64,000 nucleotides of DNA, from the IMG/VR virus record IMGVR_UViG_3300025098_005131, one strand, 5' to 3'. Below the pieces are notes generated by a model. That model was not told the origin of the DNA, searched no databases, and worked only from the letters and a program-made list of their open reading frames with translations. A program made the position numbers and the translations under genes. Position 1 is the stretch's first letter. Every line of letters starts with the position of its first letter. Below are positions 19,552 through 49,827 of this stretch, piece after piece. Origin of the DNA: a virus. Lineage: Duplodnaviria > Caudoviricetes.

Positions 19552-19971
19552 TTAGTCTAAATATGACCTTACTTTTAAATTTGCTTCTTTAAGAATATTT
19601 ACTCCACCTAGATCTCTATAAGGTTTTAAGTAAATGACTTCTTCTATTTTGCTATTTACTATAGCTTTCGCACAATATTCACACGGGCTAAGAGTTAAAT
19701 ACATTTTTTTTGTCTTCGGGTTGTTGTAGTCCAATTTTAACAGTGCGTTAATTTCAGCATGCAGCAAACCACTACAACCAGGTTCTTCAGATTGAGGTGC
19801 GTTTGACATACCAGCAGCATTACCATTATACCCTAAAGAAAGCACTTGTGTATTATCTGACGTCACTATAAGTGCCCCTACCTTAAATGTGGAATGATGG
19901 CTTCGTTGTGCTATTGTTTCTGCCATTTGCATCCAAATTTTATCCCAAGATGGCCTATTTATATTTACCAT
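19552..19971 (-). CDS. dCMP deaminase
   Basis: KVGALIV, LGYNG, HAEINAL, SPCEYCAKAI. Confidence 0.93.
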   Translation of the reverse strand: MVNINRPSWDKIWMQMAETIAQRSHHSTFKVGALIVTSDNTQVLSLGYNGNAAGMSNAPQSEEPGCSGLLHAEINALLKLDYNNPKTKKMYLTLSPCEYCAKAIVNSKIEEVIYLKPYRDLGGVNILKEANLKVRSYLD

Positions 19972-19990
19972 TAAATTGCTCCGAGGTAAA

Positions 19991-20566
19991 ATGTCTATTT
20001 TATTATTAGAAGATTATATAAAAAATATTTTAAAAGAAAACAAAGAATTTATTAAAACTATAAATGTTTTTGACTTTGATATGACTTTGTTTAAATCGCT
20101 AACAGCACCTAATCGTTGGAATACAAAAGAGTCAGGATTTTGGTGGAATTCAGAGGAATCTTTAAATCAAGCATATCATAAGGACAACTTAAACAGTTTG
20201 TGGATAGAAAACACAGTTAATTCTGTAAAGCTGTCTATGAGTGATCCAGCATCACTAACAGTATTATGCACAGCAAGAAGCAAGACACCAGAAATTATGT
20301 ATGTTACAAATAATTTACTTCGATTAAAAGTTTTGCTTTTTGACGACAATTGTCTTTTCTATAAACCTTTAGGCATAAAAATGTCAACTGCACAGTATAA
20401 AACTGACGTCATAGTCAGACTTCTCAACGCTTATAGTTATGCAAACGAAGTTAATTTCTGGGAAGACAATATAGAAAACCTACAGCATGCTAAAAGTTTT
20501 ATTGATCAAAACAATAAACATAATAGCAGAAAAATTCAATTTAATTCACATGTTGTAATTGCTTAG
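19991..20566 (+). CDS. HAD-superfamily phosphatase (Swiss-army-knife RNA-repair-like HAD) with virion-type leader
   Basis: VFDFDMTLF (DxD), CTAR, YKTDVI, FWEDNIENL; ATG 19991 has SD GAGGT (ORF track starts at 19976). Confidence 0.8.
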   Translation: MSILLLEDYIKNILKENKEFIKTINVFDFDMTLFKSLTAPNRWNTKESGFWWNSEESLNQAYHKDNLNSLWIENTVNSVKLSMSDPASLTVLCTARSKTPEIMYVTNNLLRLKVLLFDDNCLFYKPLGIKMSTAQYKTDVIVRLLNAYSYANEVNFWEDNIENLQHAKSFIDQNNKHNSRKIQFNSHVVIA

Positions 20567-21429: not shown

Positions 21430-21996
21430 TTATTTCTCTTTAAATGTAGTGTAATGTTTTGAACATCTTGGCTCATACATTCCAAACGAACCAACACGCT
21501 CTTCAGCAGTTGCATTATTTATATCGAACATTGCCTCAGTAAAGTAAGCATCTTGATCGCACATGGTGCAAACAGCCGGACAAATTTCAATTTTTGTTGC
21601 CCAAGGCATCATGTTTTTTATATTTTGAAAAGGTATTTCGTTTGCGTCTAATTGAATTGATGACACAATTATATTAACACCTTTACGATACAAAGAAATC
21701 AAAACAGAGTCAATATCCTGAATCATAAAAGCTTCATCAACCGCTACTATTGTATTTGAATTATGCATATCTTCATTTACATAACGCAATATTTCTTCTG
21801 CATGATTTATACAGAATGCTGGGTAAGTTGCACCGGTATGGGTGCTAATCGTTTCTTTTGTATAACGCTTATCTTTATTTGCTTTAAAAGCTACAACTTG
21901 ACGACCTTTATATAAGGCTCTATCAATATCAGACATTAGTCTTGTTGTTTTTGATCCAAACATTGGGCCAGTATAAATTATAAATTGTGGGTTCAT
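21430..21996 (-). CDS. tdk: Thymidine kinase (type II)
   Basis: YTGPMFGSKTT P-loop, VAVDEAF, CTMC...RCSKH zinc site. Confidence 0.95.
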   Translation of the reverse strand: MNPQFIIYTGPMFGSKTTRLMSDIDRALYKGRQVVAFKANKDKRYTKETISTHTGATYPAFCINHAEEILRYVNEDMHNSNTIVAVDEAFMIQDIDSVLISLYRKGVNIIVSSIQLDANEIPFQNIKNMMPWATKIEICPAVCTMCDQDAYFTEAMFDINNATAEERVGSFGMYEPRCSKHYTTFKEK

Positions 21997-22005: not shown

Positions 22006-22896
22006 CTAAGGTATTATGTGTGCCGATCGAATACTAACTGTAAGATTTATAGCACAATCTTCAGGTAAAGACATTTCTTTGGCGGTTTTAACGCTAAGTA
22101 TCTTAAGAAATTCATAGTCAGCCCATAAAGTTTTTGATACGTTTGAAGACCTTAGAGTAGCCGATACATTTAATTTATTTTGACGCCACAAAACATGAAT
22201 TATTGAAATGCAACTATCATCAGTGTATACAAATCTCCTACTATCATGTTTTTGGGCTTGATTATACTCGTTTAGACCTGTAAACTCTCTAAATATTTTA
22301 TTGAAAAACTCAAACTCAATTTTTTCATAGTACTCTTTTTCTTGAGGAAAGTCTAGCACAGTTAAATCCAATTGGTTTTTATCAACTACTTCTTTACATT
22401 GAACATCAACAAGCTCGTTTCTTCCGCTGTTAAGCACTAAAGACTTTATTAATTCTTGCCCTGGCATTTCGTTTAAAGAATTAATGAACTGTAGTAATTT
22501 GTTAATGTTTCTATCTAAGTCATCTTCTTCAAGAACTAAAACATTAGGATAAGAACCAAAACCCATTTTAGCAATATTTCTAAAATAGCTTCTTACTTTT
22601 AAAATACTGTCCTTATCTTGAAACTCGTCACCTCTTTTTTCCAGTCTGTCAAGAATAGTTGATTCAGAAGGTAGAAGTAATATGTAAAGTGTGTCTAGTC
22701 GTTTAAGATCGTCTAAAATTTTATCAAACCAAAGTGATGCATCTTCTCTTTCATACATCTTTGCATAAACAAACATAGACATACAACTTCTGTCTTGAAT
22801 ATTATACTTAAAGTTAGTTTTTTTATGAAGTTGATTGTATAGTGTAGTTTTACCACTACAATCAGGACCTTCAATATTAATATTAAAAAATCGCAT
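22006..22896 (-). CDS. Fusion: dNMP (thymidylate-like) kinase + truncated thymidylate synthase/dCMP hydroxymethylase-fold domain
   Basis: N-term NIEGPDCSGKTT and IQDRS; C-term SRR, catalytic Cys exactly 20 residues before RS, RSSNVSKTLWAD, SAH. Confidence 0.85.
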   Translation of the reverse strand: MRFFNINIEGPDCSGKTTLYNQLHKKTNFKYNIQDRSCMSMFVYAKMYEREDASLWFDKILDDLKRLDTLYILLLPSESTILDRLEKRGDEFQDKDSILKVRSYFRNIAKMGFGSYPNVLVLEEDDLDRNINKLLQFINSLNEMPGQELIKSLVLNSGRNELVDVQCKEVVDKNQLDLTVLDFPQEKEYYEKIEFEFFNKIFREFTGLNEYNQAQKHDSRRFVYTDDSCISIIHVLWRQNKLNVSATLRSSNVSKTLWADYEFLKILSVKTAKEMSLPEDCAINLTVSIRSAHIIP

Positions 22897-28306: not shown

Positions 28307-28330
28307 ATAAAAGATATAATAAGGCTTATA

Positions 28331-31096: not shown

Positions 31097-31143
31097 AATC
31101 GAGATATGATTAAAATATTTATTAAAAACAAATAAGGTTTGAA

Positions 31144-33339: not shown

Positions 33340-33566
33340 GCTCCAGCCTTAGCAACCCACAGCCCGTCTTGATTTTCCAAGTCAATCGTTTCTCTAGAAG
33401 TTCCATTTAGATAAACAAGCAAACCTTTTATAAAATAGTGGTCTTGAATAATCTCTACAATTAAGCAGTTATTCTTTATTTTTTTACCGTAATAAAATAT
33501 ATCAATCATATCTCCTTCTTTTAACTGTGATACAAATCGTATTTCTTCTTTATGTTTATCTGACAT
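33336..33566 (-). CDS. Small SH3/KOW-like hypothetical protein
   Basis: LKEGDMIDI ... CLIVEI pattern. Confidence 0.65.
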   Translation of the reverse strand: MSDKHKEEIRFVSQLKEGDMIDIFYYGKKIKNNCLIVEIIQDHYFIKGLLVYLNGTSRETIDLENQDGLWVAKAGA

Positions 33567-34767
33567 TTATTTTAGTCTTTCCCCATCGCAAAGTAATTTG
33601 TGCATTGCTACTCAACATTTCAGTGCATGCATAAAAAGGTGCTACATCGTAGAATTTAAATATTTTTTCTTCATCGTTGTATGTATAATCAATATTTTCT
33701 TCCAGAAGAGTCAAACCATTAAATATATTTGCTGGGTAATCTGCTAGTACTGGACCAATCTTACACATTATCTCTTCAATAATCGCGTTGAATGCACCAT
33801 TAACTTGTTGTGTATTAACAATATAGTTATAGTCAATTGAGTTTTGATTCAACACGTTACCACTGACACTTTGTAAAGCAGCAACGTTTGCATTGTCTAC
33901 ACCTAGCGTATACGTTGTTATACAAGGATTTTGAACAGTTGTTTGTCTGCAATTATCTGGATTAATACTGAAAATATTATTTTGCACAAAGTCTCGAGAA
34001 GGATCAATGCCTTCATTGGGCGATCCGTCACTAATTAGAATAATATAATAAGATTCATAATCAGTATTTCTAATTTTAGATAGAGCGCTATTTAAAGGGG
34101 AAAGAAAATTAGTTCCTCCTCCAGCGTTGTAAGTATTTAAAATAGACAATACGTTTAATTTGTGTTGCTGACCTTTTCCAATAGGAGTTTCTATTATAAC
34201 ATTGTCGTTGTAAAGAACTACTGAATAGTTTAAATTATAGTCAGCATTTACAAATTGCCTTGCAGTAGTTTTTAGCTGATTTATTCTATTTCCTTGCATA
34301 GAGCCGCTAAAGTCTAGCAAAAGTATAACAGCTGTGTCTATTAACTCAATGTCATGAACTTCTTCGTTTACCTCTAAGATGTTTTCTTTAGAGACATATC
34401 CTCTTCCTGGATCATATGTGGATGTAATTTTAAATCTTCTCTTACACAAATCTTCAGCATTACATTCGAGTCCTAAGTCTTCACAAGAAAAGTCTGGCTC
34501 TGGTGAATCAAGAATTATTGCACATTGGTTTAAAGTATTACTCGAACAAATTGTTTCAATGTCATTTGAATTTCTTATGCCTTCTCCTGCGTCAATACTA
34601 CACGTATCGAGCAGCTGTTTTTCGTAAGATATGTTTAAAGATATTCTTCCATATTGAATTACTATTAAAGAAATGCTAGCCAAGACAGCAGCTAGTAAAA
34701 CTGTTGTTAGTGCTGCAAATCCTTTACTTTGAAGACTTTTTGAGGTATATAAGATGTTTTGTTCCAT
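33556..34767 (-). CDS. TadG-like pilin-domain / von Willebrand factor A protein
   Basis: KG|FAALTTVLLAAVLASISLIVIQYGR...QLLDTCSIDAG (Tad N-terminus, prepilin-like site); DFSGS MIDAS, GGTNF, LISDGSPN; Cys-rich flanks. Confidence 0.85.
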   Translation of the reverse strand: MEQNILYTSKSLQSKGFAALTTVLLAAVLASISLIVIQYGRISLNISYEKQLLDTCSIDAGEGIRNSNDIETICSSNTLNQCAIILDSPEPDFSCEDLGLECNAEDLCKRRFKITSTYDPGRGYVSKENILEVNEEVHDIELIDTAVILLLDFSGSMQGNRINQLKTTARQFVNADYNLNYSVVLYNDNVIIETPIGKGQQHKLNVLSILNTYNAGGGTNFLSPLNSALSKIRNTDYESYYIILISDGSPNEGIDPSRDFVQNNIFSINPDNCRQTTVQNPCITTYTLGVDNANVAALQSVSGNVLNQNSIDYNYIVNTQQVNGAFNAIIEEIMCKIGPVLADYPANIFNGLTLLEENIDYTYNDEEKIFKFYDVAPFYACTEMLSSNAQITLRWGKTKINVR

Positions 34768-35494
34768 TGTAATTTTTATTTTCTATATTGTCTATATTCC
34801 AATAATGATTGCTCTGTTTAATCTGAGTATAAAACTCATGCATTAGCAAAACATCAATGTTTACACCCTGCTGTTTTAGAATGTCAGCAGCTAAGAGATT
34901 TGAATTAAACTTCCTGTCTCGACGTATTGCCTTCAACTCTACATATTTACCAGTGTCAGGATGATAAAAGTCCGGTGTGTATTGTTTGTCTCTTCCGTCA
35001 TATTGAACTGTAAATGTTTTGTGCTCATATATATATGGCTTATTTGTAGCTTCACACCACCTTGCATAGTCTGCTTCTAAAGATGATTTAAAGAAATAAT
35101 TTGAAGGTAAATCATACCTAAATCCTAGTCTGCCGTTAGAAGGTATTTCATGAAGACCACTGCTTTGTGCCTTGTTTTGACATTCCTTACCACAATACTT
35201 TGTTTCTCTGCCTTTAGGTCTTTGATATTCTATTGCACAATATTCACATTTAAGATTAACTCTTTCTTTTTTATTCTTTTTTAAATAACAAGCTCTAGAG
35301 CAATAAGTCTTTCCGCGTTTAGACTTAAATTCAATTCCACAAACTTCACATTGTTTTATTTCGTATTTGACGCTTGATTTGTTTTTGCACTCTTTAGAAC
35401 AATATTTAGATGTTTTTGCTCTTGAAGCGGGCTTCTTGTATTCTTTTTTACAACATTCACAAATTAATGTGACTTGGGTTGATGTTCTTGACAT
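34724..35494 (-). CDS. Zn-finger-repeat PD-(D/E)XK endonuclease, probable free-standing homing endonuclease
   Basis: Three CxxC...YC(S/G)xxC repeats, then SSLEADY ... YIYE ... YTPDFY ... VELK. Confidence 0.8.
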   Translation of the reverse strand: MSRTSTQVTLICECCKKEYKKPASRAKTSKYCSKECKNKSSVKYEIKQCEVCGIEFKSKRGKTYCSRACYLKKNKKERVNLKCEYCAIEYQRPKGRETKYCGKECQNKAQSSGLHEIPSNGRLGFRYDLPSNYFFKSSLEADYARWCEATNKPYIYEHKTFTVQYDGRDKQYTPDFYHPDTGKYVELKAIRRDRKFNSNLLAADILKQQGVNIDVLLMHEFYTQIKQSNHYWNIDNIENKNYNGTKHLIYLKKSSK

Positions 35495-35544: not shown

Positions 35545-36531
35545 CTACTTAGGAAAGAATTGTTTTAGATCGATATCTTGCTCTTTAGCTTGATCTAAAT
35601 ATTTTAAAGGATTATAAAAGTAGATATTTGAATCTTTAATTGATTGCCAAGATTGTCGAATGCCTTCCTTTAAATCTCTTGTCCTACTAAAGCCCAAGGT
35701 ATCTACAAGTTTTTTATTGCTTAACCTATGATTTCCAAGATAATCAGTTTGTGGGTGCCATTGTATTACAGGCTTTAAATTAAGACCAGTTACTTCTTCT
35801 ATTAATTCTACAATTTCCAAAGTATTATGTGGGTTTTCTGCTGTAATATTGAAATCGTCGTTTAATATATTGTTTGTAATTAAGTCCATTATACTACTAC
35901 AAAAGTCCTCAACATGCATATAGTCTTTTATTTTTTCTGGATTTAAAAACATATCTAAACTATTTATTTTGTTTTTTAAACAGAACAAAGACTTAGATAT
36001 AAGAGAGTTCATGTCACCTTCTCCGCCGTAAGCAAATAGCGGTCTCACGACGAGCCAGCTTTTAGCGTTATTTTTAACTGTCATTTCACCTGCATATTTT
36101 TGAATTGCATAGTTTGTCCTAGGTAATATTTTGCTATCTTCAAAAATATCAGATTCTTGATATTGATATGTATCATAAATAACTGTCGTTCCAATATATA
36201 CGATCGTTGTGTTTGTATTATTAGCAGCTTCAGTTAGAACATGTGTGCCTAATATGTTTGTATTAATTGCTCGCTCAGGGTTTAATGCAACTACATCTGT
36301 ACCTACTAGGGCTGCATTGTGAACAATAACGTCAAGCTCTAAGTCTGAAAGTAGTTGTGACCACTCTTCAATAGAATTTCTATATACACAAACTTCTCCT
36401 ACTCCTGTACGAATATAATCTTGTGAATAAATACTTTTATCTAACGATACAAAAGTATGATTATAATTTTCTATTTGATTAGCCAAGTTAGTTGCAATAA
36501 AACCTTTTTCACCAGTGATGCCTATTCTCAT
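35545..36531 (-). CDS. NAD-dependent NDP-sugar epimerase/dehydratase (extended SDR)
   Basis: ITGEKGFIA, VHNAA, YAIQK (YxxxK), RPLFAYG, HVEDF. Confidence 0.92.
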   Translation of the reverse strand: MRIGITGEKGFIATNLANQIENYNHTFVSLDKSIYSQDYIRTGVGEVCVYRNSIEEWSQLLSDLELDVIVHNAALVGTDVVALNPERAINTNILGTHVLTEAANNTNTTIVYIGTTVIYDTYQYQESDIFEDSKILPRTNYAIQKYAGEMTVKNNAKSWLVVRPLFAYGGEGDMNSLISKSLFCLKNKINSLDMFLNPEKIKDYMHVEDFCSSIMDLITNNILNDDFNITAENPHNTLEIVELIEEVTGLNLKPVIQWHPQTDYLGNHRLSNKKLVDTLGFSRTRDLKEGIRQSWQSIKDSNIYFYNPLKYLDQAKEQDIDLKQFFPK

Positions 36532-36779
36532 TAATTGTTTCCTTTAATAATTTTAACGACTTTAATGTCTTTTGTTTTAACGTTATACACTTTATTGCTT
36601 TGTGTATCTAGCATTTTATAGTCAAAAAACTTCTTAATACCATATTTTGTTTTATTCTCAAAAAGATATTCTCTACCTAAAACCAGTGCTGTTCGTGGTC
36701 CTAAAAATTGATTTTTAAAAACTTTATGCATAAATGTTACAAGATCAGAAGATTCCAGTCCTTCTGTGTAAGATGACAT
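36531..36779 (-). CDS. Small hypothetical protein (82 aa)
   Basis: Packed ORF with SD GGAG. Confidence 0.65.
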   Translation of the reverse strand: MSSYTEGLESSDLVTFMHKVFKNQFLGPRTALVLGREYLFENKTKYGIKKFFDYKMLDTQSNKVYNVKTKDIKVVKIIKGNN

Positions 36780-36787
36780 ATAACTCC

Positions 36788-37045
36788 CTAACTTAGATAT
36801 TTAACTTGTATATCAATTATTTTGTGTATTGTTATATTCTCTACTTTACCATCCCAGAAAATGGTCATTCCGGTGGGTCTAAGACCATCTTTAAGAGATA
36901 ATCCTACTAATAAGCAATTTTCATATTTCTTTGGTTTATTATAATATGAATAATCAATAATTACACTTATCATTTTGCCAATATCGTTTTTGTCTAAATA
37001 AAAGTCTTGATTTAACCTTATAAAATCGCTGTTTATTTTCGTCAT
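36788..37045 (-). CDS. Small hypothetical protein (85 aa)
   Basis: Packed ORF, ATGA overlap with upstream gene. Confidence 0.65.
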   Translation of the reverse strand: MTKINSDFIRLNQDFYLDKNDIGKMISVIIDYSYYNKPKKYENCLLVGLSLKDGLRPTGMTIFWDGKVENITIHKIIDIQVKYLS

Positions 37046-37296
37046 ACTGTCGTAACGCTAACAAATACATCCTCATCTTCTAAATCAACAGCCTGAAGTC
37101 TGCCTTTTTCTGTCATAAAAAGCAACAAGTCTTTATTTAAATTTCCTTTTTCAATGCATATCAAAAGGCAGTTTTGATAATTAGATATGAAGCTGTAACT
37201 CTTATACTGGATTGATATATTAACTATTTCTTTTATGTGTTGTTTAATTTTTTCTATCAAGAACTTTATACTCCATAATGCTATAAGGCACAACAT
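37042..37296 (-). CDS. Small hypothetical protein (start uncertain)
   Basis: Fills gap; listed start overlaps upstream gene by about 50 nt. Confidence 0.55.
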   Translation of the reverse strand: MLCLIALWSIKFLIEKIKQHIKEIVNISIQYKSYSFISNYQNCLLICIEKGNLNKDLLLFMTEKGRLQAVDLEDEDVFVSVTTV

Positions 37297-37450
37297 CAGT
37301 TATCTTATTGCCTATTACATAAATCATTGCAGAAAAATTTAGATCTTTTTTAATCTTATAGACTATCCCTAACTTTTCTTCTTCGTTCGAGTAAAGAAAA
37401 TTATATCTAATTAGGTCGCCTATTTTCAGGTCGTGTATATAATCTATCAT
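37244..37450 (-). CDS. Small SH3/KOW-like hypothetical protein
   Basis: LKIGDLIRY ... LGIVYKI pattern. Confidence 0.7.
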   Translation of the reverse strand: MIDYIHDLKIGDLIRYNFLYSNEEEKLGIVYKIKKDLNFSAMIYVIGNKITDVVPYSIMEYKVLDRKN

Positions 37451-38265
37451 TGAAAATCTCTTTTTTTAGCTCCGATCGTTTGTCTTTCTCTAACCCAGTG
37501 TGTTGTCCTTTTATCGAGCGTCGTTTCTTTAATTACATTATGACCATTACAGTCTTTGTTTCTTCCATAAACAACAAAACCTTGAACAGCATTCCCATTA
37601 TTACCATCAAAAGTATAGTAACTTTGAATTGTTGCTCCTTGTTCATTATATGACTTGTTAATTACAAATCTTATCGCTTTATAAAGAGTTATCAGGTTTT
37701 TGTCTGTTAAATCTTTTATTAAAGAATGTGGATTTATACGTGAATACCATAAAGATTCTGCCTTGATATAATTACCAACTCCAGAAATAACCTTTTGATT
37801 CATCAATACATCACATATATTTTTGTTGTTTTTTTGTCTTAAAAATTTAATAAAATCAGATGAAGAAGGGGGATTAGACAACATGTCAGGCCCAATAGAT
37901 TTAAGCTTTTTTGCCAAATCTTTTTGATTTTTAATCTGAACTGTTCCAAAATTTCTAATATCATTGAAATACAATGTATCGTCCTCATAAAAGTTAATCT
38001 CTATTCTAGAATGATCTGTTTTTTTTCTAGACCAGTTTCCTGTCATTCCTAAAGTATTGAAAATAATTATGTCTTCTAAATCAAGCCATATAAACTTGCC
38101 TTTACAATTAAAGCTTTTAATTTCTTTGTCTAATAATGTTTCTAGGTTTGGAATTGGTTTTTTAATATATCTTCCGCTCAATATATTAACTGACTTTATT
38201 TGATAATGTCTAAAATTTTGATTTAGTTTATCAACAAACAATTTAACTTCAGGTCCTTCTGGAAT
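37447..38265 (-). CDS. fpg: Fpg/Nei DNA glycosylase-AP lyase, zincless-finger type, ATT start
   Basis: Extending 8 codons upstream of the track start gives (ATT)-PEGPEVKLF; KGKF, LGMTG, NDIRNFG, LMNQKVISGVGNYIKAESL (H2TH). Confidence 0.93.
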   Translation of the reverse strand: MPEGPEVKLFVDKLNQNFRHYQIKSVNILSGRYIKKPIPNLETLLDKEIKSFNCKGKFIWLDLEDIIIFNTLGMTGNWSRKKTDHSRIEINFYEDDTLYFNDIRNFGTVQIKNQKDLAKKLKSIGPDMLSNPPSSSDFIKFLRQKNNKNICDVLMNQKVISGVGNYIKAESLWYSRINPHSLIKDLTDKNLITLYKAIRFVINKSYNEQGATIQSYYTFDGNNGNAVQGFVVYGRNKDCNGHNVIKETTLDKRTTHWVRERQTIGAKKRDFQ

Positions 38266-38305
38266 AATACACCTTCCTAACTATTTTTCTACAAAATTAA
38301 AGCCT

Positions 38306-38515
38306 TTAATTGTTTAAAATCCTATTGGCTTCTGGGTCATCTAAGTCTGTATTTGCTAAATCTTTTTCATTTTCTTCCAAGTCAGGCAAGGTATTGTCAT
38401 GCACATAATTTGCTAAATCATCTTTTCCGACCCATTTAAGGAATTGCATTAGAGGGTGACCAATTATATTGTGAAATGCATAGTTTTTAATAAATTTTTC
38501 GTATTTAAAATTCAT
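38306..38515 (-). CDS. Small His-motif hypothetical protein
   Basis: FHNIIGHPL ... VHDNTLP. Confidence 0.7.
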   Translation of the reverse strand: MNFKYEKFIKNYAFHNIIGHPLMQFLKWVGKDDLANYVHDNTLPDLEENEKDLANTDLDDPEANRILNN

Positions 38516-38518
38516 AGC

Positions 38519-38968
38519 TTATTCAATTGCATCTGCATAAGGTTCATTTGGTAAGATACCTGTTTCAATAATTCTATCAAGATAGTCTTCTAATTGTTCA
38601 AATGTTGTGCAGACCTTAATACCACTTCTCGCGAGCATTAAATTAAATTTTGCGCCTTTAGGAAGTCCGGCACAGAAATAGATTATAGGCTTATTAAATG
38701 CAAAAGCGTATCCTGCTTCCCAAATTGTACCAATATCTTTATCTCTAGTATTTACTAGTAAAAAGTCTGCTGTCTGTATATGATGAAGATTGCCACTAAA
38801 TGTTTCATCTTGCACGCTTTTTGGCGCATTAGGCGGGCAAACAAAAATTCTTCGAGGAGAAGCTAGTTCAAAGTGGTTAACTCGATCATCAAAAATCTTT
38901 TCCAGATGTGTAAGTTCTGCGTCTTGAATAGGATTAAACCAACCGCTTGCTAAATAAATCTTTTTCAT
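38519..38968 (-). CDS. Nucleoside 2-deoxyribosyltransferase / dNMP N-glycosidase family
   Basis: KIYLASGWF, ADFLL, DIGTIWEAGYAFAFNKPII. Confidence 0.9.
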   Translation of the reverse strand: MKKIYLASGWFNPIQDAELTHLEKIFDDRVNHFELASPRRIFVCPPNAPKSVQDETFSGNLHHIQTADFLLVNTRDKDIGTIWEAGYAFAFNKPIIYFCAGLPKGAKFNLMLARSGIKVCTTFEQLEDYLDRIIETGILPNEPYADAIE

Positions 38969-39021
38969 TAAATTGTTCCTTTTGTAAATAAATTAAATTT
39001 GTTGTTTATAATTGTTTTAGG

Positions 39022-39993
39022 TTAAAATTCATTATCTAGCTGCTGTCTAATTAAACTTACAGCTGCTACGTCATCGTTCCACATCCTTGTAAAGATTTTT
39101 TCTTCACCAGATTTGTTGCCATTAATCTCTTCACGACGACATGCATAAATTGAATCTTTTTCATTAAATTCAAATAAATCGTTCTTTGGTTCTGGCTGAT
39201 AAAGATTTGTGCCTCGTGAAGTAAAGGAACCATCGGGTAATTCAACTCTAAAAGTGCGAACATAATGCATGTCAGGTTTTTCAAAGTTTAAGCATGTAGA
39301 AACTTCTGGAATTGATTCGCAAACAATTTTTGCAATACGCGTTGCAATAATATTGTCTACTTCTGGTTGAATTTGCACATCTTGACGCTGTCTAATAAAA
39401 CCAATTAAATCTTTAAGATTAAATCGAGCAACGTAAAAAGTCTCAAGTGCCTTAGGCAAAATAACTCGTGCATCCATTAAAGACACAACTCGAGAATCAA
39501 CCATATCAGAATAAAGTTGTTTTGCTGCAGAAGCAACTTCAATAAATCGATGATGAAAGTCTGAATTTTCAACAGACTCAGGAACTAAAATGTTGTCATT
39601 CCTAAGATCACGATCACCGGTGCACTGCGCTGCAAATGAACCTGCTCTATGTCTAATTAAATGCGTCACTGTTTGTGTATCAATTCCGCTAATTTTAAAA
39701 GTAAAACCTAAACATTCCATAGGTGTAGGTAATGCTCTAAAATTAAGAACATCTTGTAAGTTAATTGAAGCTTCTTCTGGTAAAGCATTTTCAAATGAAG
39801 TCTCAGAAGGTGTGTCAGCCCAGGTTGCTTTGGTCATGTGCCAAGCAATTTTTTGAGCTTGTTCTCTAGTGGGCCCATCAATCAACTCAATGTTAAGTGA
39901 TTCTAAGTTATTAATGTAATTAGTATTAGGAACTTGATCAAATTTAAGCTCCATAGGAAGTGTGACTTGTTTAAGATCATTATTAATTGGCAA
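39022..39993 (-). CDS. Divergent ThyX-like flavoprotein (second copy, altered active site)
   Basis: FTFKISGI ... HLIRHRAGSFAAQCTGDR, DARVILP, NLKDLIGFIRQR; TTG start with SD AAGGAG. Confidence 0.85.
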   Translation of the reverse strand: MPINNDLKQVTLPMELKFDQVPNTNYINNLESLNIELIDGPTREQAQKIAWHMTKATWADTPSETSFENALPEEASINLQDVLNFRALPTPMECLGFTFKISGIDTQTVTHLIRHRAGSFAAQCTGDRDLRNDNILVPESVENSDFHHRFIEVASAAKQLYSDMVDSRVVSLMDARVILPKALETFYVARFNLKDLIGFIRQRQDVQIQPEVDNIIATRIAKIVCESIPEVSTCLNFEKPDMHYVRTFRVELPDGSFTSRGTNLYQPEPKNDLFEFNEKDSIYACRREEINGNKSGEEKIFTRMWNDDVAAVSLIRQQLDNEF

Positions 39994-40020
39994 ATTTATT
40001 CTCCTTTGTATTTACCATTT

Positions 40021-40049
40021 ATTTTAATATTAAAAATTAAAATTTACAC
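40021..40049 (-). promoter_or_regulatory. Putative promoter GTGTAA-N17-TAAAAT upstream of ThyX-like gene
   Basis: Recurring motif pair. Confidence 0.6.
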
Positions 40050-40051
40050 AT

Positions 40052-40702
40052 TTATGTTTTATTGATCTGGTTTCTTAACTGGATCAAAAGTTCTTTGTCT
40101 TTTCGTGAAGCACTTAAAGTTTTTAATACATCAGTAAAACTGACTTTTTTTAAAATGCAAGTAGTCATAATATATTCGTACAAAGAATCGATATCAGCTT
40201 GGACTGCATCTTTTTTTTCTATATCTAGATGTAAAACATTTTTATTAACGACAAATTGTAGTTCTTTAGCTAGAACGCAAAAAAGCGAGGTCTTGAATTT
40301 ATTTAAATCTTTAATTGTTAAATTCGAGGATATTATACATTCTATAAATCCTTCATCACTTTTATGTTTTTTATCATAATAAAAATTACAATTTAAAACT
40401 TCAAAATAAAAATTTTTAAAAGTATCAATTAAATTTAACGTAATGTCACACATAAAGTCGTAACATACGAGCAAAGAGTGGTTAAAGTTAATCTCATAGG
40501 TTTTATTAAAAATGTTTTTAAAGCTCGAGGTCGCTGTCATTTGTAAAATGTCAGACTCTATATTGATTGTAATGTTTCCGTTGTTTATCATTCCTGAAAT
40601 ATAAATTAAATCAAATTCAATAATTCGCCATATGTTGTCAAGATAATAATAAGACCTAAAGTTATTGTTTCTATATAGTTCTAGATCTTCGTGGAAAAAC
40701 AT
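40052..40702 (-). CDS. Hypothetical protein (216 aa)
   Basis: Packed ORF with SD AAAGGT. Confidence 0.65.
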   Translation of the reverse strand: MFFHEDLELYRNNNFRSYYYLDNIWRIIEFDLIYISGMINNGNITINIESDILQMTATSSFKNIFNKTYEINFNHSLLVCYDFMCDITLNLIDTFKNFYFEVLNCNFYYDKKHKSDEGFIECIISSNLTIKDLNKFKTSLFCVLAKELQFVVNKNVLHLDIEKKDAVQADIDSLYEYIMTTCILKKVSFTDVLKTLSASRKDKELLIQLRNQINKT

Positions 40703-40716
40703 ATTACACCTTTAGA

Positions 40717-41091
40717 TTAATACCCTTTTGTTAACCTTTCTTTAATTATCTCGTCTTTCTTTTTAAATGCATTGTAAAATTCGTCAACATCTACACCTAT
40801 TAAAATAATAAGAGAATAAAAGTAATTAAAAGCATCAACAATTTCTTCTAAAAACTCTTCTCTATTTATTTCTGGCACTTCTGTTTCTCTATGCGGCTTC
40901 CAGTTTTTTAAATGACCTAGTGCTTCAAACATTTCTTCTACACCTTTAAGAGCTGTTTCACGCAGTAAAGCTTGACTACTTTTACTTGAAATATTTACTG
41001 GCCAAGACGGATATGAATCTTTATATTTTTCTTTAATTAAGTGCATAAAGACTTCTCTTTTTTCAAAGATTTCGTCTAATCTATCTTGCAT
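40717..41091 (-). CDS. All-alpha dNTP pyrophosphatase (dimeric dUTPase/dCTPase/MazG superfamily)
   Basis: VEEMFEAL ... WKPHR ... EEFLEEIVDAFNY acidic motifs. Confidence 0.88.
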   Translation of the reverse strand: MQDRLDEIFEKREVFMHLIKEKYKDSYPSWPVNISSKSSQALLRETALKGVEEMFEALGHLKNWKPHRETEVPEINREEFLEEIVDAFNYFYSLIILIGVDVDEFYNAFKKKDEIIKERLTKGY

Positions 41092-41094
41092 GTT

Positions 41095-41313
41095 TTAACT
41101 TTCTGTCTCAAAACTAGATTCTTGCGATGCGTCTACCATTTTTTCAACTTGCTCGTTAAATATTTTTTCATATTCACTGTTTAAAACTACCTTATTCTTT
41201 TCATTTACTTCCATCTGCATCATTCTTAAATGATCAACAATGTCTGTTCCTGTTAATAGTGCCATTTGTATAAGTTTGACAATTTGTGCAATTGTTGTAT
41301 CGTCTAAATTCAT
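41095..41313 (-). CDS. Small hypothetical protein (72 aa)
   Basis: Packed ORF with SD AGGAG. Confidence 0.75.
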   Translation of the reverse strand: MNLDDTTIAQIVKLIQMALLTGTDIVDHLRMMQMEVNEKNKVVLNSEYEKIFNEQVEKMVDASQESSFETES

Positions 41314-41321
41314 TTTTTCTC

Positions 41322-41681
41322 CTAAATTATTATGGGTCTTTTCTTTAAATTTTTATCTATAGTTTGATCGTCATGCTCCATTACTTTAATCATGTCTACT
41401 CCTTCTATCTTCTTGAGGGACTTAATCATATCTAAAAAAGGTTTTCTTGTTTCAATAAACGTGGGTATATAAGAAACGTTAAGCTCAATTAGTCTGTGTC
41501 CGTATGAAGAAACGACGTCTGATATTGGTCGTGTTTGCCTGACAGTTACAACTCCCGGAAGAGCTCTCATATCTGTCATGATGTCTAAAACAGTTGGATC
41601 TTCTCTTTCTTCGATTTTTATTCTACATCTTACTAAGGTGTTAACTAAGTCAGTATGTCTTTCTAGTATTAAGTTTTTCAT
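41322..41681 (-). CDS. Hypothetical protein, possible virion protein
   Basis: MKNLILE leader; SD AAGGAG; ATAGTTA motif upstream. Confidence 0.7.
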   Translation of the reverse strand: MKNLILERHTDLVNTLVRCRIKIEEREDPTVLDIMTDMRALPGVVTVRQTRPISDVVSSYGHRLIELNVSYIPTFIETRKPFLDMIKSLKKIEGVDMIKVMEHDDQTIDKNLKKRPIII

Positions 41682-41705
41682 ATAATTCTCCTTCTATTAT
41701 AATAA

Positions 41706-42410
41706 CTATTTATTATTGAGAATATAACTTTCTACTGTGACTGGCCAAAGTTCCTGAATAATCTCAAGCATTTTACTAGCCAATGCTTGAATTTCTAGCT
41801 GTGATCCTTCATGAGTTCTAAGCTTAATAAATTTTAAAATATTATTTAGATTAGCAGTCGCATAATATTCTGTATATAGATTTTGAGGAAGAATCATTCT
41901 TGCTTGCTCACGAGCAATACCTTTTTTAATCATATCATAATATAATTTAACAGAATTTTGTACGTGATAATCTACAGCTTCATTACATAGCCTACTTTCA
42001 AGTAAAATCGGATAAGAATCCATTTGTGGATTAATTTGGTTATCTATGTTAGATGCTTGTCTATTAGACTTATGCTGCGTCCTATAAGATTTTGGAATAT
42101 AAAATTCCATGTTTACATCTGTATATCGACGTGATATTTCATTATAAGACCATGTCCTATGTCTATGGTGTTGTGATCTAACAAATAAAGGAACTTTTAT
42201 TCTAAATGTAGCAATGTTATGTTCTAAAGTAGAAGTATGTTGATGATCAATTAAATAATTGATCAGCTTTTTGTCTTTACTATCTAAAGTTTCTTTCTGG
42301 ACTCCAAAAGAAACACGAGCAGAATTAACAACAGTAATATCGTTACCCATATGTTGTACTAGCTCTATTTTTCCAATATTGTCTTTATAAAGATAATGTG
42401 TATTTGTCAT
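41706..42410 (-). CDS. thyX: FAD-dependent thymidylate synthase
   Basis: NSARVSF, HTSTLEH, RHRTWSYNEISRRY canonical motif, EQARMILP. Confidence 0.96.
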   Translation of the reverse strand: MTNTHYLYKDNIGKIELVQHMGNDITVVNSARVSFGVQKETLDSKDKKLINYLIDHQHTSTLEHNIATFRIKVPLFVRSQHHRHRTWSYNEISRRYTDVNMEFYIPKSYRTQHKSNRQASNIDNQINPQMDSYPILLESRLCNEAVDYHVQNSVKLYYDMIKKGIAREQARMILPQNLYTEYYATANLNNILKFIKLRTHEGSQLEIQALASKMLEIIQELWPVTVESYILNNK

Positions 42411-42436: not shown

Positions 42437-42465
42437 ATTATATTAAATTAAAACATAATTTACAC
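42437..42465 (-). promoter_or_regulatory. Putative promoter GTGTAA-N17-TATAAT upstream of thyX
   Basis: Recurring motif pair. Confidence 0.7.
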
Positions 42466-43947: not shown

Positions 43948-44190
43948 TTACATCTTTTGAAGATTTTCAATTGTTGTTGAGCCAATTTTTCTTGATACTT
44001 CAACACCGTCTTTTAAAACTACAAATGTAGGAACTGACATAATCTGATGGCTTGTTGCTAAATCCATGTCTTTTGTTATATCAATTAATTTTATATTTAT
44101 TTCATCTCTAATTTTTTCGTTAAGAGATTCTTTTATTTGTTTACAAGGCTCACACCACGGTGCACTAAAAAATAATATTTCTTTACTCAT
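43948..44190 (-). CDS. trxA: Thioredoxin
   Basis: FSAPWCEPCK, IMSVPTF. Confidence 0.92.
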   Translation of the reverse strand: MSKEILFFSAPWCEPCKQIKESLNEKIRDEINIKLIDITKDMDLATSHQIMSVPTFVVLKDGVEVSRKIGSTTIENLQKM

Positions 44191-47004: not shown

Positions 47005-47472
47005 TTAATCTGAACTACCAATCTTCCCATGATTTCTCTGAGAAGATGTTGTAATGTTTAAATATTCTTCTTTGTCTACAATAGAGAATTGATTGTCACA
47101 TTTAACAACAACAATTTGAACGGGTAATTTTACGTTTGAGTCTAATATAAATTCTTCTGAACCTACGTTAACTAAATTAACAAAAACTTCACCTGTATAC
47201 CCATAGTCAATAACACCTGCTCTTACTTTAAGTGGTGTCTTTGTAATCGATCCTCTTTCTTGAATTAGCGCAACATAACCTTTAGGCACTTGCATTTTTA
47301 AACCGGTTGGAATTAATGTTTTATTGTTTTTAGGTAAGACTGATTGTGGGCAAATTGTTACTTTATTACCTGCATTGTATAGATCGAGACCAGCGCTTTC
47401 TCCATTATATGCAGGAGAGTAATCTTCTACAGCTATTTTATTTGTCCCTAAAGTAAACTTTAAACTTTCCAT
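47005..47472 (-). CDS. dut: Trimeric dUTPase
   Basis: SAGLDLY, ERGS, AGVIDYGYTGEV, VQIVV, RNHGKIGSS; start placed at ATG 47472 (track gives 47490, overlapping helicase stop). Confidence 0.93.
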   Translation of the reverse strand: MESLKFTLGTNKIAVEDYSPAYNGESAGLDLYNAGNKVTICPQSVLPKNNKTLIPTGLKMQVPKGYVALIQERGSITKTPLKVRAGVIDYGYTGEVFVNLVNVGSEEFILDSNVKLPVQIVVVKCDNQFSIVDKEEYLNITTSSQRNHGKIGSSD

Positions 47473-47482
47473 TAAAAAAATA

Positions 47483-48859
47483 TTAACCATCTTTTTGATT
47501 TACCTCTTTCCACTTTTCTCTTAATTTTTCTTTCATTGTGTTATTGTCTTGAGCGACTGCTTCATTCAATGACATTTCAGTATCATCAAGAATTTCAAAT
47601 TTTGATTTAGCTGTGTCTATGTTTATTGGAAATAACAATCCATCTCTTCCAGCACGATTCTTAGCTACAAATATTCGACCTCCGCCTGTAGACTTTTCCA
47701 TTGGCTTACGACTTATCGATAAAACTACGTCTGCAACTTGTGCCTTGCCATAAGACTCACCTAGATTTTCTAAGCCTACAACGTCAGACTTTGAAGAATC
47801 TTTGTTCGCTTGTGAAGCAGTCCAAATAGGTATTTGCAATTCCACAGCAAGATTTCTTAATTCTGTATAAATTAACTTTAACTCGTGCCTTAAAGAATCG
47901 TATGCTTTAGAAGACTTCATTACGTCAGCATAGTCAACAGTCACCAAACTAGGTTTAAAACCTTTCAGTGTAAGCTTTTCAATATGATTTCTTAATGTCA
48001 TAACTGAAGCTGAACCTGTTGGGTACTCTTTTATAATAAGCTTTCCTAGCTCCATTTTTTTGTATTTGTTAACTACTTCAAGTTTTCTTTCAATAATCTC
48101 GTTACTTGGTATATCACAAAGATTTGAATCATACCGCTTGCCTGTGTCATGTTCTGATAGTTCGAATGTATAGTGTATTACATTTTTGCCAGCTCTCATA
48201 GCTGCACAGCCCATTGCAACTAAGAAGTGTGATTTACCTACGCCTGTGTTTGCTGCAATGACGCCTAGTTCACCTCTGCCTAAACCGCCTCTTAATATGT
48301 CTTGCGAGTCAATCTTGTCTAAACCAGTCGGACAAACTTGCCTGTTTATTTGAACAAATCTTGCTTCAATGTCATCAAAGAAATTATGACCTGCTGTGTT
48401 AGGCATACCAACAGAAATAGCTTCTTTCATAATTTTTAAGACTGATTCATACTTTTCTGTTTGAATTAGTTCAACACTTTGTTCTAATGCATCTCTAAAT
48501 GCTTGACGTTTGCAGAATTCAAGAGACTTATCTTTAACATATTGCAAATCGCCAATATCTGGGTTAGTTTTCATTCTATGAAGATATTCTATAATCTGAT
48601 CTCTCAATACATGATCTTTTGATTTTGATAAATCTTCTTTAATGATTGTGATAAGAATTGTTAGCGTTGGAAATGTCTTGTATTTATTATAATAAGAATA
48701 GTATCTTTCGCAAAGAAAAGAAAGATACTTTAAATCAAAATAGTCGTGACTCATTACCTCAATCATTTGAGCTGACCAGTTTATATCTGTAAGCATGCTT
48801 TGGAAGACTTTTTCCTGAAATGGCTTGCCAAACTTAGAAAAGTTTTTGTTTTGACTCAT
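47483..48859 (-). CDS. dnaB: Replicative helicase (DnaB / T4 gp41 family)
   Basis: RGELGVIAANTGVGKS, FELSE, VDYADVM, WTASQAN, KNRAG. Confidence 0.93.
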   Translation of the reverse strand: MSQNKNFSKFGKPFQEKVFQSMLTDINWSAQMIEVMSHDYFDLKYLSFLCERYYSYYNKYKTFPTLTILITIIKEDLSKSKDHVLRDQIIEYLHRMKTNPDIGDLQYVKDKSLEFCKRQAFRDALEQSVELIQTEKYESVLKIMKEAISVGMPNTAGHNFFDDIEARFVQINRQVCPTGLDKIDSQDILRGGLGRGELGVIAANTGVGKSHFLVAMGCAAMRAGKNVIHYTFELSEHDTGKRYDSNLCDIPSNEIIERKLEVVNKYKKMELGKLIIKEYPTGSASVMTLRNHIEKLTLKGFKPSLVTVDYADVMKSSKAYDSLRHELKLIYTELRNLAVELQIPIWTASQANKDSSKSDVVGLENLGESYGKAQVADVVLSISRKPMEKSTGGGRIFVAKNRAGRDGLLFPINIDTAKSKFEILDDTEMSLNEAVAQDNNTMKEKLREKWKEVNQKDG

Positions 48860-49827
48860 TGAATTTTGTTCCTTAGAGATGATTTAAGTGCAATTAGAAA
48901 TGTGTGAATATTAAAAAAGTTTAAGCCTTCACGATTCATAATTTTAAGAAGATTCATTTTGTTAATGCTTGACTCTTTATTGTCATATTGATGATTGATT
49001 TTTTTAACTTGATCAGCGCTTAACATAGCAGAGTCTAAATACATTAATTTCCAGTTTTTATGTAATAGTAATTTGTTATTTATTATATTCTCATAAAGCT
49101 TTATTTTACACTTTAAGTTAACTTTTTTACTTGATTCATTAATTATATCACTTATTGACATTTCTTTTTGCTGTGTTAATTCTGGAAATCGTTTGACCAT
49201 GGTTTTTATACCAGCACCTTTTATACCTTTAATACCGTCGCTAGTGTCACCTGCAAAGCATCTTACTAAACAAAAATTATATGCTGGTACGCTCCACTTG
49301 TCTAATACATATTTTTTATCAATCAGTATTTTCTTGTTAGGCGACCAAATTTTTGTATTTTCATCTAAAAGTTGATAGTAGTCTTTGTCAGAGGTAACAA
49401 TTATTTTTTCATGATCAACATTTTTAGTCTTAGTTAGATATGAAATAACATCATCAGCTTCGCAATCACTAACATAGATTTGTGTTACTGGAGTTTCGTA
49501 TAATATTTCAATAAGTATTTTAAGTTGATTGTTTCTGTTCTCAGAAGTATCAGGTATATCGCTATAATAAGAACTTCTATTAAGTCTGACTGGTCGCCTG
49601 CCATTTTTATAGTCAGGATCAATACTTCTTCGTCTTAAAGAACCTCCACCTTCCCACGCAACTACGATTTTTTGAGGATTAAACTTGGCTGATAAATGCT
49701 CTATGTTACGCAAAAACCCAACAATGGCTCCACATAAATTACCGTTAAGAGACTTTGTTGGGTTTGCTGCAAAGTGTCGCATAAAAACATTCAAGCCGTC
49801 AATATAGATAACAGGCTTGTTGCTCAT
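48856..49827 (-). CDS. 5'-3' exonuclease / flap endonuclease (T4 RNase H-like), copy 2
   Basis: YIDGLNVFMR, YKNGR, CEADDVI, VTSDKDYYQL, GDTSDGIKGIKGAG. Confidence 0.93.
   Translation of the reverse strand: MSNKPVIYIDGLNVFMRHFAANPTKSLNGNLCGAIVGFLRNIEHLSAKFNPQKIVVAWEGGGSLRRRSIDPDYKNGRRPVRLNRSSYYSDIPDTSENRNNQLKILIEILYETPVTQIYVSDCEADDVISYLTKTKNVDHEKIIVTSDKDYYQLLDENTKIWSPNKKILIDKKYVLDKWSVPAYNFCLVRCFAGDTSDGIKGIKGAGIKTMVKRFPELTQQKEMSISDIINESSKKVNLKCKIKLYENIINNKLLLHKNWKLMYLDSAMLSADQVKKINHQYDNKESSINKMNLLKIMNREGLNFFNIHTFLIALKSSLRNKIQ

Follow-up and report, generated by a model that had tools for sequence, protein, structure and literature searches.

A conserved ThyX2, NDT-family and all-alpha pyrophosphatase gene cassette in an uncultured marine giant phage, and its possible part in making a modified DNA pyrimidine

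The closest described relative of the system reported here is the 5-hydroxycytosine (5hoC) pathway, whose members are a 5-hydroxy-dCMP (5hodCMP) synthase (AfhB), a nucleotide kinase, a dCTPase, NDP-sugar genes and DNA glycosyltransferases (PMC13326640). In this pathway, ThyA homologues carrying both the Asn177-to-Asp and the Asp169-to-Asn change work as flavin- and O2-dependent 5-hydroxy-dCMP synthases (Lee et al., PMC13326640), and they are accompanied by YorR-like kinases and all-alpha dCTPases (PMC13326640). In parallel, in phages with Z genomes, the NDT-family enzyme DmtZ, which has an Asn at the triad position, is a dAMP hydrolase that cooperates with a deoxynucleoside triphosphatase (dNTPase) in removing the canonical base, and the DutZ/DmtZ pair is an experimental precedent for joining a dNTP pyrophosphatase to an NDT-family enzyme in the removal of canonical nucleotides (PMC12884076). 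Here we describe a stretch of 64,000 nucleotides of phage DNA (IMG/VR virus record IMGVR_UViG_3300025098_005131), the whole of which we call the window, where a minus-strand block at 35545-42410 encodes an all-alpha dNTP pyrophosphatase, a divergent ThyX named ThyX2 and an NDT-family enzyme, and where a kinase/ThyA-like fusion named Kin296 is encoded elsewhere. What we observed directly is which genes are present, their order and co-occurrence, their conserved residues and their predicted folds; from these we conclude that the all-alpha enzyme, ThyX2 and NDT are the core of a portable pyrimidine-nucleotide cassette that also includes Kin296. To our knowledge, nearly all known phage pyrimidine replacements start from a classical ThyA homologue. 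A preliminary description of the window had put its pathway forward as a candidate undescribed one. It is not wholly so, since the nearest route, that to 5hoC, appeared in print in 2025-2026, but our search of 8.4 million papers found no description of the ThyX2 clade, of the obligatory pairing of ThyX2 with NDT, or of a minimal ThyA-like domain fused or adjacent to a kinase.

A portable cassette around ThyX2 and an NDT-family enzyme

Domain calls with Pfam, PHROGs and NCBIfam found every domain that the preliminary description had named, each in its place on the minus strand. The genes that concern us most are the following.

41095..41313, minus strand: conserved 72-aa protein (s72), present in 65 loci and, in the marine lineage, always directly upstream of the all-alpha enzyme; no family match
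40717..41091, minus strand: all-alpha dNTP pyrophosphatase (MazG / dimeric-dUTPase type), 124 aa; phrog_12184 4e-16, PRA-PH 0.006
39022..39993, minus strand: ThyX2, a ThyX-fold flavoprotein of a distinct clade, 323 aa; weak Thy1 match, 5e-19
38519..38968, minus strand: NDT-family enzyme, 149 aa; Pfam Nuc_deoxyrib_tr 4e-12
22006..22896, minus strand: Kin296, a YorR-like dNMP kinase joined to a truncated ThyA-fold domain; AlphaFold2 (AF2) model, Foldseek and profile

By tblastn, 29 window proteins were compared with 80 marine IMG/VR loci and with the Geobacillus phage GR1, the only cultured carrier. The order s72, all-alpha (MazG-like) enzyme, ThyX2, NDT is kept in all the IMG/VR loci with enough flanking DNA: NDT follows ThyX2 in every locus that extends past ThyX2, and s72 and the all-alpha enzyme precede ThyX2 wherever the upstream DNA suffices. 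The genes for the canonical ThyX1 (50 loci), an epimerase (65), Fpg (42) and a 216-aa protein (33) are often close by but can be missing. In the marine relatives furthest from the window (L068 and L071-L073, with a ThyX2 58-60% identical to ours), the genes for Fpg, s72, the all-alpha enzyme, ThyX2, NDT, the epimerase, DNA polymerase III (PolIII), the kinase fusion, thymidine kinase and dCMP deaminase are contiguous, and for this reason we read the window blocks at 19.5-27 kb and 35.5-42.4 kb as one block interrupted by about 8 kb. This grouping of genes is far beyond chance.

Further cassette contexts were taken from six members of the ThyX2 clade:

GR1 (Geobacillus phage with PolIII; ThyX2 43% identical): NDT, thioredoxin, HD, glycosyltransferase, P-loop kinase, RNase H, nitroreductase, ThyX2, 151-aa protein, PolIII, all-alpha "dUTPase"
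L082 (GR1-like): all-alpha and trimeric dUTPase both present
L083 (PolB phage): NDT, kinase, ThyX2 fused to a 265-aa domain
L084 (siphophage-like, PolIII): all-alpha enzyme, NDT, YfbR-like HD, ThyX2, kinase, S-adenosylmethionine (SAM) methyltransferase, PolIII
L086 (PolA phage): NDT, YfbR-like HD, kinase, ThyX2, all-alpha enzyme
L089 (PolB phage): ThyX2, then a 174-aa protein

ThyX2, NDT and kinase occur together in at least four unrelated backbones, those of GR1, L083, L084 and L086, with the all-alpha enzyme in three of these, and NDT adjoins ThyX2 or lies within 5 kb of it in every informative context. All-against-all BLAST showed that the NDTs of these cassettes are mutually homologous (29-42% identity) and that their kinases (141-147 aa) are homologous to residues 1-140 of Kin296; the all-alpha enzymes of L082 and L084 match that of the window directly, and those of GR1 and L086 are linked to it through L082, with the GR1 link being the weaker. 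Kin296 residues 178-294 have a homologue in the protein encoded next after ThyX2 in GR1 and L082, and a profile search adds that of L089. The fusion therefore joins two cassette genes, given that its kinase half is the cassette kinase and its C-terminal half is the gene downstream of ThyX2. The combination expected of base replacement, namely a synthase, a kinase and removers of canonical nucleotides, co-occurs in the marine lineage, GR1, L083, L084 and L086. The extra copies to which the preliminary description had drawn attention are thus a conserved, horizontally mobile gene set and not casual duplicates, and its Fpg/Nei and epimerase genes stand outside the core; the five genes whose co-occurrence it had proposed to check are not one unit, since these two belong to the marine lineage only and are missing from many of its members.

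ThyX2, the kinase fusion and the nucleotide-removing enzymes

Among 1.84 billion cluster representatives, the ThyX2 clade, with proteins of about 300 aa, has 42 representatives below E 1e-30. The AF2 model of ThyX2 has a predicted local distance difference test score (pLDDT) of 94.6, and its best Foldseek matches are M. tuberculosis and T. maritima ThyX, and PolB (E 2e-11 to 1e-9). The RHR motif is kept, and alignments of 36-48 clade members show little or no variation at the positions matching R78, R80, R147 and R174 of T. maritima ThyX, the last of which is the Arg that polarises uracil. The complete ThyX signature RHRxxSxxxxSxR(Y) with the folate-stacking His53 is nevertheless lacking: 85% of the clade has Leu for His53, Gln75 has become His, and where ThyX has its S-x-R-Y loop the clade has C-(T/S)-G-D-(R/K), which reads C-T-G-D-R in the window protein. 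Besides, ThyX2 is longer by about 60 residues at the N-terminus and about 90 at the C-terminus, and it scores 52 bits against the NCBIfam thyX equivalog, whose cut-off is 87.9, while ordinary phage ThyX proteins of similar length (PBC1, MMB025, PB1-like) keep S/T-x-R. We conclude from these residues that ThyX2 should still bind flavin adenine dinucleotide and a uracil-type nucleotide, and that its one-carbon or redox half-reaction may differ; ThyX2 is unlikely to be the dC-modifying enzyme, because the Arg that reads uracil O4/N3 is kept. ThyX1, ThyX2 and the Kin296 fusion were all found in 4/4 marine genomes searched, which argues against simple redundancy. The predicted complex of ThyX2 with the ThyA-like domain scored 0.00, a value that counts neither for nor against binding. 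Three ThyX2 homologues carry additional modules: an HNH homing endonuclease module in P0033, an intein after about residue 204, near the Arg174-equivalent motif, in P0150, and an extra N-terminal 265-aa domain in P0014, for which there was a weak GT2 match below cut-off and no PDB match.

The kinase/cytosine-type ThyA fusion that the preliminary description had proposed is real by its AF2 model, Foldseek, profile and residue signature. Kin296 (pLDDT 92.7) has its kinase in residues 1-145 and a truncated ThyA-fold domain at about 150-296. Residues 1-150 superpose on YorR and on thymidylate kinases (Z-scores from 13.8, for YorR, to 12), and the whole model matches in Foldseek first 9iqu, the phage HY126 dCMP hydroxylase AfhB (1e-6), second 9iqc, a flavin monooxygenase with dCMP, and then ThyA and T4 dCMP hydroxymethylase. 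The profile of the C-terminal domain likewise reaches T4 dCMP hydroxymethylase (E 2e-4), with Cys, Arg-Ser, Asp179 and His216 aligned. The domain has Cys229, Arg249-Ser250, Asn252 (at the Asp169 position), Asp260 (at the Asn177 position), Arg220-Arg221 and His293; in E. coli numbering the set reads Cys146, Arg126-Arg127, Arg166-Ser167, His207, Asp177, Asn169 and Asp143. Among close homologues, Asp177 and Asn169 are each kept in 119/119 and Asp143 in 99/119, and by these residues the ThyA-like domain carries the published signature of the flavin-dependent 5-hydroxy-dCMP synthases. The Cys, Arg-Ser, Asp and His are invariant across relatives of 17-36% identity, which points to catalysis on a cytosine nucleotide and not to a passive appendage. 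The domain aligns at the sequence level with residues 132-217 of T4 gp42 only, its template modelling (TM) score relative to AfhB is 0.49, and it lacks the folate-holding parts of gp42, which comprise about 65 residues at the N-terminus and 29 at the C-terminus. In GR1, a gene of the NAD(P)H nitroreductase/flavin-reductase type (L001 8286-8885) lies directly upstream of ThyX2 and the mini-ThyA; its product could supply reduced flavin to a flavin-dependent hydroxylase.

In the NDT-family alignment, Tyr5, Asn60, Lys77-Asp78, Glu84 (the nucleophile), Asn109 and the C-terminal Glu are invariant, and the best PDB match is the B. psychrosaccharolyticus NDT 6evs (1e-8), a proven type II transferase. 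The preliminary description had placed this enzyme with DNPH1 and MilB, a placement that its sequence does not bear out: it has no GSIRGG phosphate loop, no Ser pair (for Asp92/Asn123), and an N-terminus that reads Y-L-A-S-G-W-F. What stands of the proposal is the pairing of a dNTPase with an NDT, for which DmtZ is the precedent, and by analogy with DmtZ the window NDT might still act on dNMPs. The phage Carin-5, which has T-hypermodified DNA, also contains an NDT homologue, whose neighbourhood gave no useful link. In the all-alpha enzyme, E53, E56, E82, E83 and D86, forming the motifs E-x-x-E and E-E-x-x-D, are invariant in 11 diverse homologues, and the C-terminal K...R...GY is kept. Its profile matches in the PDB the dimeric dUTPases 5mil (7e-5) and 1w2y (3e-3), and DCTPP1 at 0.04; the T4 dCTPase gp56 belongs to the same superfamily.

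Neighbouring genes, promoters and the source phage

The remaining features of the two blocks, and the separate dUTPase gene, are these.

42437..42465, minus strand: promoter-like site GTGTAA-N17-TATAAT, 27 nt upstream of ThyX1
41706..42410, minus strand: canonical ThyX1, 234 aa, RHR...S-x-R-Y intact; Pfam Thy1 1e-49, PDB ThyX 2e-40 over the full length
41322..41681, minus strand: conserved 119-aa protein, marine lineage only, 48 loci; no family match
40052..40702, minus strand: variable 216-aa protein between the all-alpha enzyme and ThyX2; 23-69% identity
38306..38515, minus strand: 69-aa open reading frame (ORF), marine lineage only, 32 loci; no family match
37447..38256, minus strand: Fpg/Nei DNA glycosylase with ATT start; H2TH 1e-15, Fapy_DNA_glyco 3e-12
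36938..36966, minus strand: second promoter-like site, heading an 82-aa ORF and the epimerase; a copy of the motif
35545..36531, minus strand: extended SDR (NDP-sugar epimerase/dehydratase/reductase type); Pfam Epimerase 8e-24
21430..21996, minus strand: thymidine kinase; Pfam TK 3e-32
19976..20566, plus strand: HAD-family phosphatase; Pfam HAD_SAK_1 3e-19
19552..19971, minus strand: dCMP deaminase; Pfam dCMP_cyt_deam_1 3e-22
47005..47490, minus strand: trimeric dUTPase-family protein; Pfam dUTPase 5e-13, TIGR00576 3e-19, below cut-off

The dCMP deaminase, Tdk and trimeric dUTPase that had been reported elsewhere in the window are thus present as well. By chance the motif GTGTAA-N17/18-TATAAT should occur 0.08 times in the window, yet it has 7 exact copies there, every one of them on the minus strand (besides the two copies listed, 644-673, 27022-27050, 28277-28306, 49082-49111 and 51942-51970). 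It resembles a type of promoter particular to the phage, with a -35 element that is not canonical. The copy at 42437..42465 probably heads a unit running from ThyX1 through Fpg, and the epimerase is probably a separate transcription unit, given that it has its own promoter-like site. Scans of the block for sigma-70-type promoters and terminators gave nothing above the shuffled expectation.

For the 216-aa protein, searches of Pfam, PHROG, NCBIfam and the PDB were all negative; a language model pointed weakly to FtsJ/VP39 and made us consider it as a methyltransferase, a candidate that we rejected since it has no SAM motif and no PDB profile match. No YfbR/DatZ-type HD hydrolase was found in the marine genomes, and the HAD phosphatase of the window could substitute for the HD nucleotidase of other cassettes. 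The stretch of about 8 kb between the two nucleotide-metabolism blocks (27060-35494) contains a photolyase-like ORF, plus-strand ORFs of 921 and 731 aa, a VWA protein and an HNH-like 256-aa protein. The first of these, a 397-aa ORF (27060-28253, minus strand) adjoining PolIII, has no Pfam or PHROG match and a language-model lead of 0.92-0.96 to photolyase/cryptochrome.

The reading frame of the Fpg/Nei gene, listed as ORF 37447-38241, begins at an ATT codon (38254-38256) directly before the catalytic Pro, with PEGPEV following; in 41 relatives the codon before this Pro is ATG in 18, TTG in 12, GTG in 3, CTG in 2 and ATT, ATC and TCG in 1 each. Read from ATT, the protein matches TIGR00577 at 2e-47 and 162 bits, below the 203-bit cut-off, and it has the N-terminal Pro-Glu, the H2TH and the C-terminal finger (zincless, with a single Cys), so by sequence it appears catalytically intact. 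It is absent from many marine relatives with full flanks, and it is probably a repair enzyme outside the portable core. The photolyase-like ORF, Fpg, an SOD-like protein (13643-14371) and a thioredoxin (43948-44190) suggest a gene set for damage repair and redox, and because of these companions repair of sunlight or oxidative damage is the simpler reading of Fpg.

The SDR is generic, scoring far below all NCBIfam equivalog cut-offs; it is missing next to NDT in L013 and L026 and absent from the portable core. As the preliminary description had said, no glycosyltransferase family matched any scanned ORF of the window, so the glycosyltransferase and NDP-sugar supply that DNA glycosylation requires do not occur together in it, and nothing supports its further suggestion that the folate-less ThyA domain adds a sugar. 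The glycosyltransferase of GR1 has no homologue in the marine genomes. Adjacent pairs of GT1 genes occur in two other relatives (L090, G002 51.0-52.6 kb; and L091, G003 125.5-127.2 kb, with an SDR and other genes alongside), with no counterpart in the relative G001 or in the window.

The window has 30% G+C, with nearly all genes on the minus strand. IMG/VR contains 112 stretches related to it, the longest of their contigs measuring 284 kb and one of them being a complete genome of 239.5 kb with terminal repeats; the relatives measure about 240-280 kb, and the window's own Kin296 protein occurs on a contig of 277.8 kb. Near-identical or partial matches to the window DNA occur in marine, seawater and viral metagenomes of 16 studies, and a near-identity search with the block among 50,697 phage records gave no match and no cultured close relative. 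The source is therefore an uncultured, A+T-rich marine giant phage, as follows from the size of its IMG/VR relatives, the marine metagenome matches and the lack of a near-identical phage record. Its other window genes encode PolIII alpha, DnaB, RecA, a gp32-like protein and two flap nucleases, together with ribonucleotide reductase, thioredoxin, GroEL, ClpP, an amidase and an SOD-like protein. Beside the full PolIII alpha (23420-26995, minus strand), there is a short family A polymerase-like ORF (54552-55613, minus strand; 353 aa; Pfam DNA_pol_A 6e-13).

Readings of the cassette and comparison with known systems

Our preferred reading, held tentatively and with a little less than even confidence, is that the cassette builds and polices a C5-modified deoxypyrimidine at the nucleotide level before replication, with a dC branch favoured. 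In this pathway the all-alpha enzyme would convert dCTP and/or dUTP to the monophosphate, as its intact metal motifs and family relatives suggest. The Cys of the ThyA-fold domain would then add to C6 of dCMP and functionalise C5, the likeliest chemistry by fold and signature residues being a hydroxylation that uses flavin and O2, like that of AfhB and the 5hodCMP synthases, and the fused YorR-like kinase would phosphorylate the product. By analogy with DmtZ and DNPH1, NDT may cleave or swap the base of an unwanted deoxynucleoside or deoxynucleotide, either the canonical one or a deaminated 5-substituted dU. ThyX2, as a flavoprotein binding a uracil-type nucleotide without the folate-stacking His and S-x-R-Y, could act as a second thymidylate synthase, work on C5 in the dU series or serve as a partner that handles flavin. 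We favour a modified-base pathway because the cassette is mobile, because two ThyX and two dUTPase types are retained across deep divergence, and because the fusion carries the published signature; besides, Z-genome phages provide a precedent for HD, all-alpha NTPase and NDT together, and two of the cassette contexts contain glycosyltransferase or methyltransferase genes. The preliminary description had argued for a modified dC made at the nucleotide level, and the 5-hydroxy-dCMP-synthase signature of the fusion makes this a reasonable reading, although the uracil-type Arg of ThyX2 does not fit a dC role for that enzyme.

Several findings weigh against the preferred reading. Among solved structures, those closest to the all-alpha enzyme belong to dimeric dUTPases, and dUTP specificity is therefore possible despite the preference for dCTP over dUTP in the preliminary description. 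The sugar pocket of NDT, with Asp78 and Asn109, is of the transferase and not of the DNPH1 type and resembles nucleoside transferases, not dNMP hydrolases. ThyX1, thymidine kinase, dCMP deaminase and trimeric dUTPase are also present, which makes an ordinary dTTP reading possible. The ThyA-like domain, with about 150 aa compared with 217 in AfhB, is possibly an incomplete enzyme; the residue at its Asp169 position is Asp, Glu or Asn, and not a fixed Asn, in relatives at 36% identity; and a profile search detected no mini-ThyA gene in the contexts L083, L084 and L086. Finally, G001, the closest complete relative, has no Glycos_transf_1 (PF00534) gene, the one glycosyltransferase family searched for there.

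Ordinary thymidylate supply and salvage, which we consider possible but rather unlikely, is the alternative that survives best. Here the all-alpha enzyme would be a dUTPase, ThyX2 a divergent thymidylate synthase and the kinase a dTMP kinase, while NDT and the HD or HAD nucleotidase would turn host deoxynucleosides into dT/dU, with pools shifted to A+T for a genome of 30% G+C and the ThyA-like domain serving as a binding or regulatory appendage. The carriers are in fact all A+T-rich, at 29-42% G+C, with GR1 at 32% in a host genus of about 50% G+C; the route through dUTPase, ThyX and Tmk is the textbook one to dTTP; and ThyX2, which keeps R78, R80, R147 and R174, is the only gene of thymidylate-synthase type in GR1. 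The kinship of the all-alpha enzyme to dimeric dUTPases, and that of NDT to a proven type II transferase whose Asp and Asn sugar-pocket residues it shares, agree with such a supply route, a ThyX of about 290-305 aa is encoded next to MazG or PolIII in ordinary phages (PBC1, PB1-like) too, and the canonical PurA of a relative would fit a general funnel from G/C to A/T. However, supply alone hardly explains why the marine phages keep the canonical ThyX1, trimeric dUTPase and thymidine kinase plus a second set in the same operon across deep divergence, with both dUTPase types in L082 too, nor why ThyX2 lost the His53 and S-x-R-Y loop that ordinary phage ThyX keeps. The invariant residues of the ThyA-like domain speak for cytosine-nucleotide catalysis and not for an appendage, and an HD nucleotidase of the DatZ family would counter a simple accumulation of dTMP.

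We consider it improbable that the modification belongs instead to the thymidine series, with ThyX2 turning dUMP into a 5-substituted dUMP (hydroxy, hydroxymethyl or similar), the kinase phosphorylating it, the all-alpha, HD and NDT enzymes draining dTTP, dTMP and dT, and the ThyA-like domain being optional. This would account for an invariant core of ThyX2, NDT, kinase and all-alpha enzyme with the ThyA-like gene in some lineages only, and for a ThyX2 in which the uracil-reading Arg174 equivalent is invariant and the folate-stacking His replaced. The DatZ-family HD, all-alpha NTPase and NDT would mirror the set that removes the canonical base in Z-genome phages, and the glycosyltransferase in the GR1 cluster, the domain fused to the P0014 ThyX2 and the SAM methyltransferase in the L084 cluster would fit as well. 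Yet the window phage has ThyX1 for dTMP and thymidine kinase for thymidine salvage, the HD member is missing from the marine genomes, and Nei-type glycosylases, one of which is encoded in the same operon, are expected to attack oxidised pyrimidines; nor do we know of any ThyX homologue with such C5-substitution chemistry.

Replacement by 2-aminoadenine (Z), with the phage PurA homologue as PurZ, the all-alpha enzyme as MazZ and NDT as DmtZ, can practically be dismissed, since, although all-alpha NTPases and NDT-family enzymes are parts of the Z-genome toolkit, the G001 PurA (L092:1324-2529, minus strand) is canonical in its GDEGKG loop and far closer to bacterial PurA (1e-61) than to PurZ (5e-11), there is no PurA homologue in GR1 or G004, and the cassette is tied to ThyX2, a pyrimidine enzyme.

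If the preferred reading is right, the ThyX paralogue, NDT and the fusion of a kinase with a minimal ThyA-like domain form a new enzymatic route, flavin-dependent 5-hydroxy-dC chemistry extends to a stripped-down domain architecture, and non-canonical DNA in widespread marine giant phages would affect virome sequencing and quantification, as well as our views on the evasion of restriction and CRISPR in the ocean. A bolder proposal, which we regard as possible though doubtful, is that ThyX2 is a flavin enzyme with a chemistry new for the ThyX fold (C5 hydroxylation or hydroxymethylation, or a flavin-borne group passed to the ThyA-like partner) that defines, with NDT, the all-alpha dNTPase and the kinase, an undescribed mobile pyrimidine-replacement pathway; its carriers would then be abundant giant phages of the sea and phages that infect thermophilic Firmicutes.

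Compared with the systems known so far, the window comes closest to the 5hoC pathway of RB69, DLP3, HY126 and RL38JI (PMC13326640; 9iqu, 9iqc), with which it shares the ThyA fold, the catalytic Cys, Asp at 177, Asn at 169 and an acidic residue in place of Leu143, a YorR-like kinase partner and an all-alpha dNTP pyrophosphatase in the genome, AfhB being its best structural match. It differs in that the domain is kinase-fused and has about 150 aa as against 217-250, in that deeper relatives do not keep the Asp169-to-Asn change, in having no genes for activating arabinose or another sugar and no glycosyltransferase, and in the tight linkage of a ThyX paralogue and NDT, which is not known in 5hoC clusters. 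The hydroxymethyl-dC pathway of T4 (gp56 dCTPase/dUTPase, gp42, gp1 dNMP kinase and glucosyltransferases) follows the same succession of a pyrophosphatase yielding the monophosphate, a ThyA-fold modification and a phage kinase, but the folate-holding regions of gp42 have no counterpart in the window and glucosyltransferases of the T4 type are missing.

Around their respective nucleotide-synthesising enzymes, the cassettes and the Z-genome toolkit (PurZ, DatZ, MazZ, DutZ/DmtZ; PMC12884076) both gather an HD protein (PF12917), an all-alpha NTPase and an NDT; the cassette NDT has the Asn of DmtZ at the triad position, and DatZ and the cassette HD belong to the same YfbR-like HD family. In contrast, the cassette synthase is a ThyX paralogue and not PurZ, the PurA of the relative is canonical, and the marine phages have no HD member. 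With DNPH1/Rcl and MilB, the window NDT has in common the NDT fold and the catalytic Glu, and plausibly also a role in removing the 5-substituted dUMP that arises from deaminated modified dCMP, whereas it has the Asp and Asn of nucleoside transferases in place of the GSIRGG loop and two Ser. Lastly, ThyX2 has the fold of ThyX and of the UMP/dUMP methylase PolB (Foldseek E 2e-11, TM about 0.7 relative to the target), their RHR motif and their Arg147 and Arg174, and it departs from both in its Leu for His53 and His for Gln75, its replaced S-x-R-Y loop, its terminal extensions and its score below the family cut-off.

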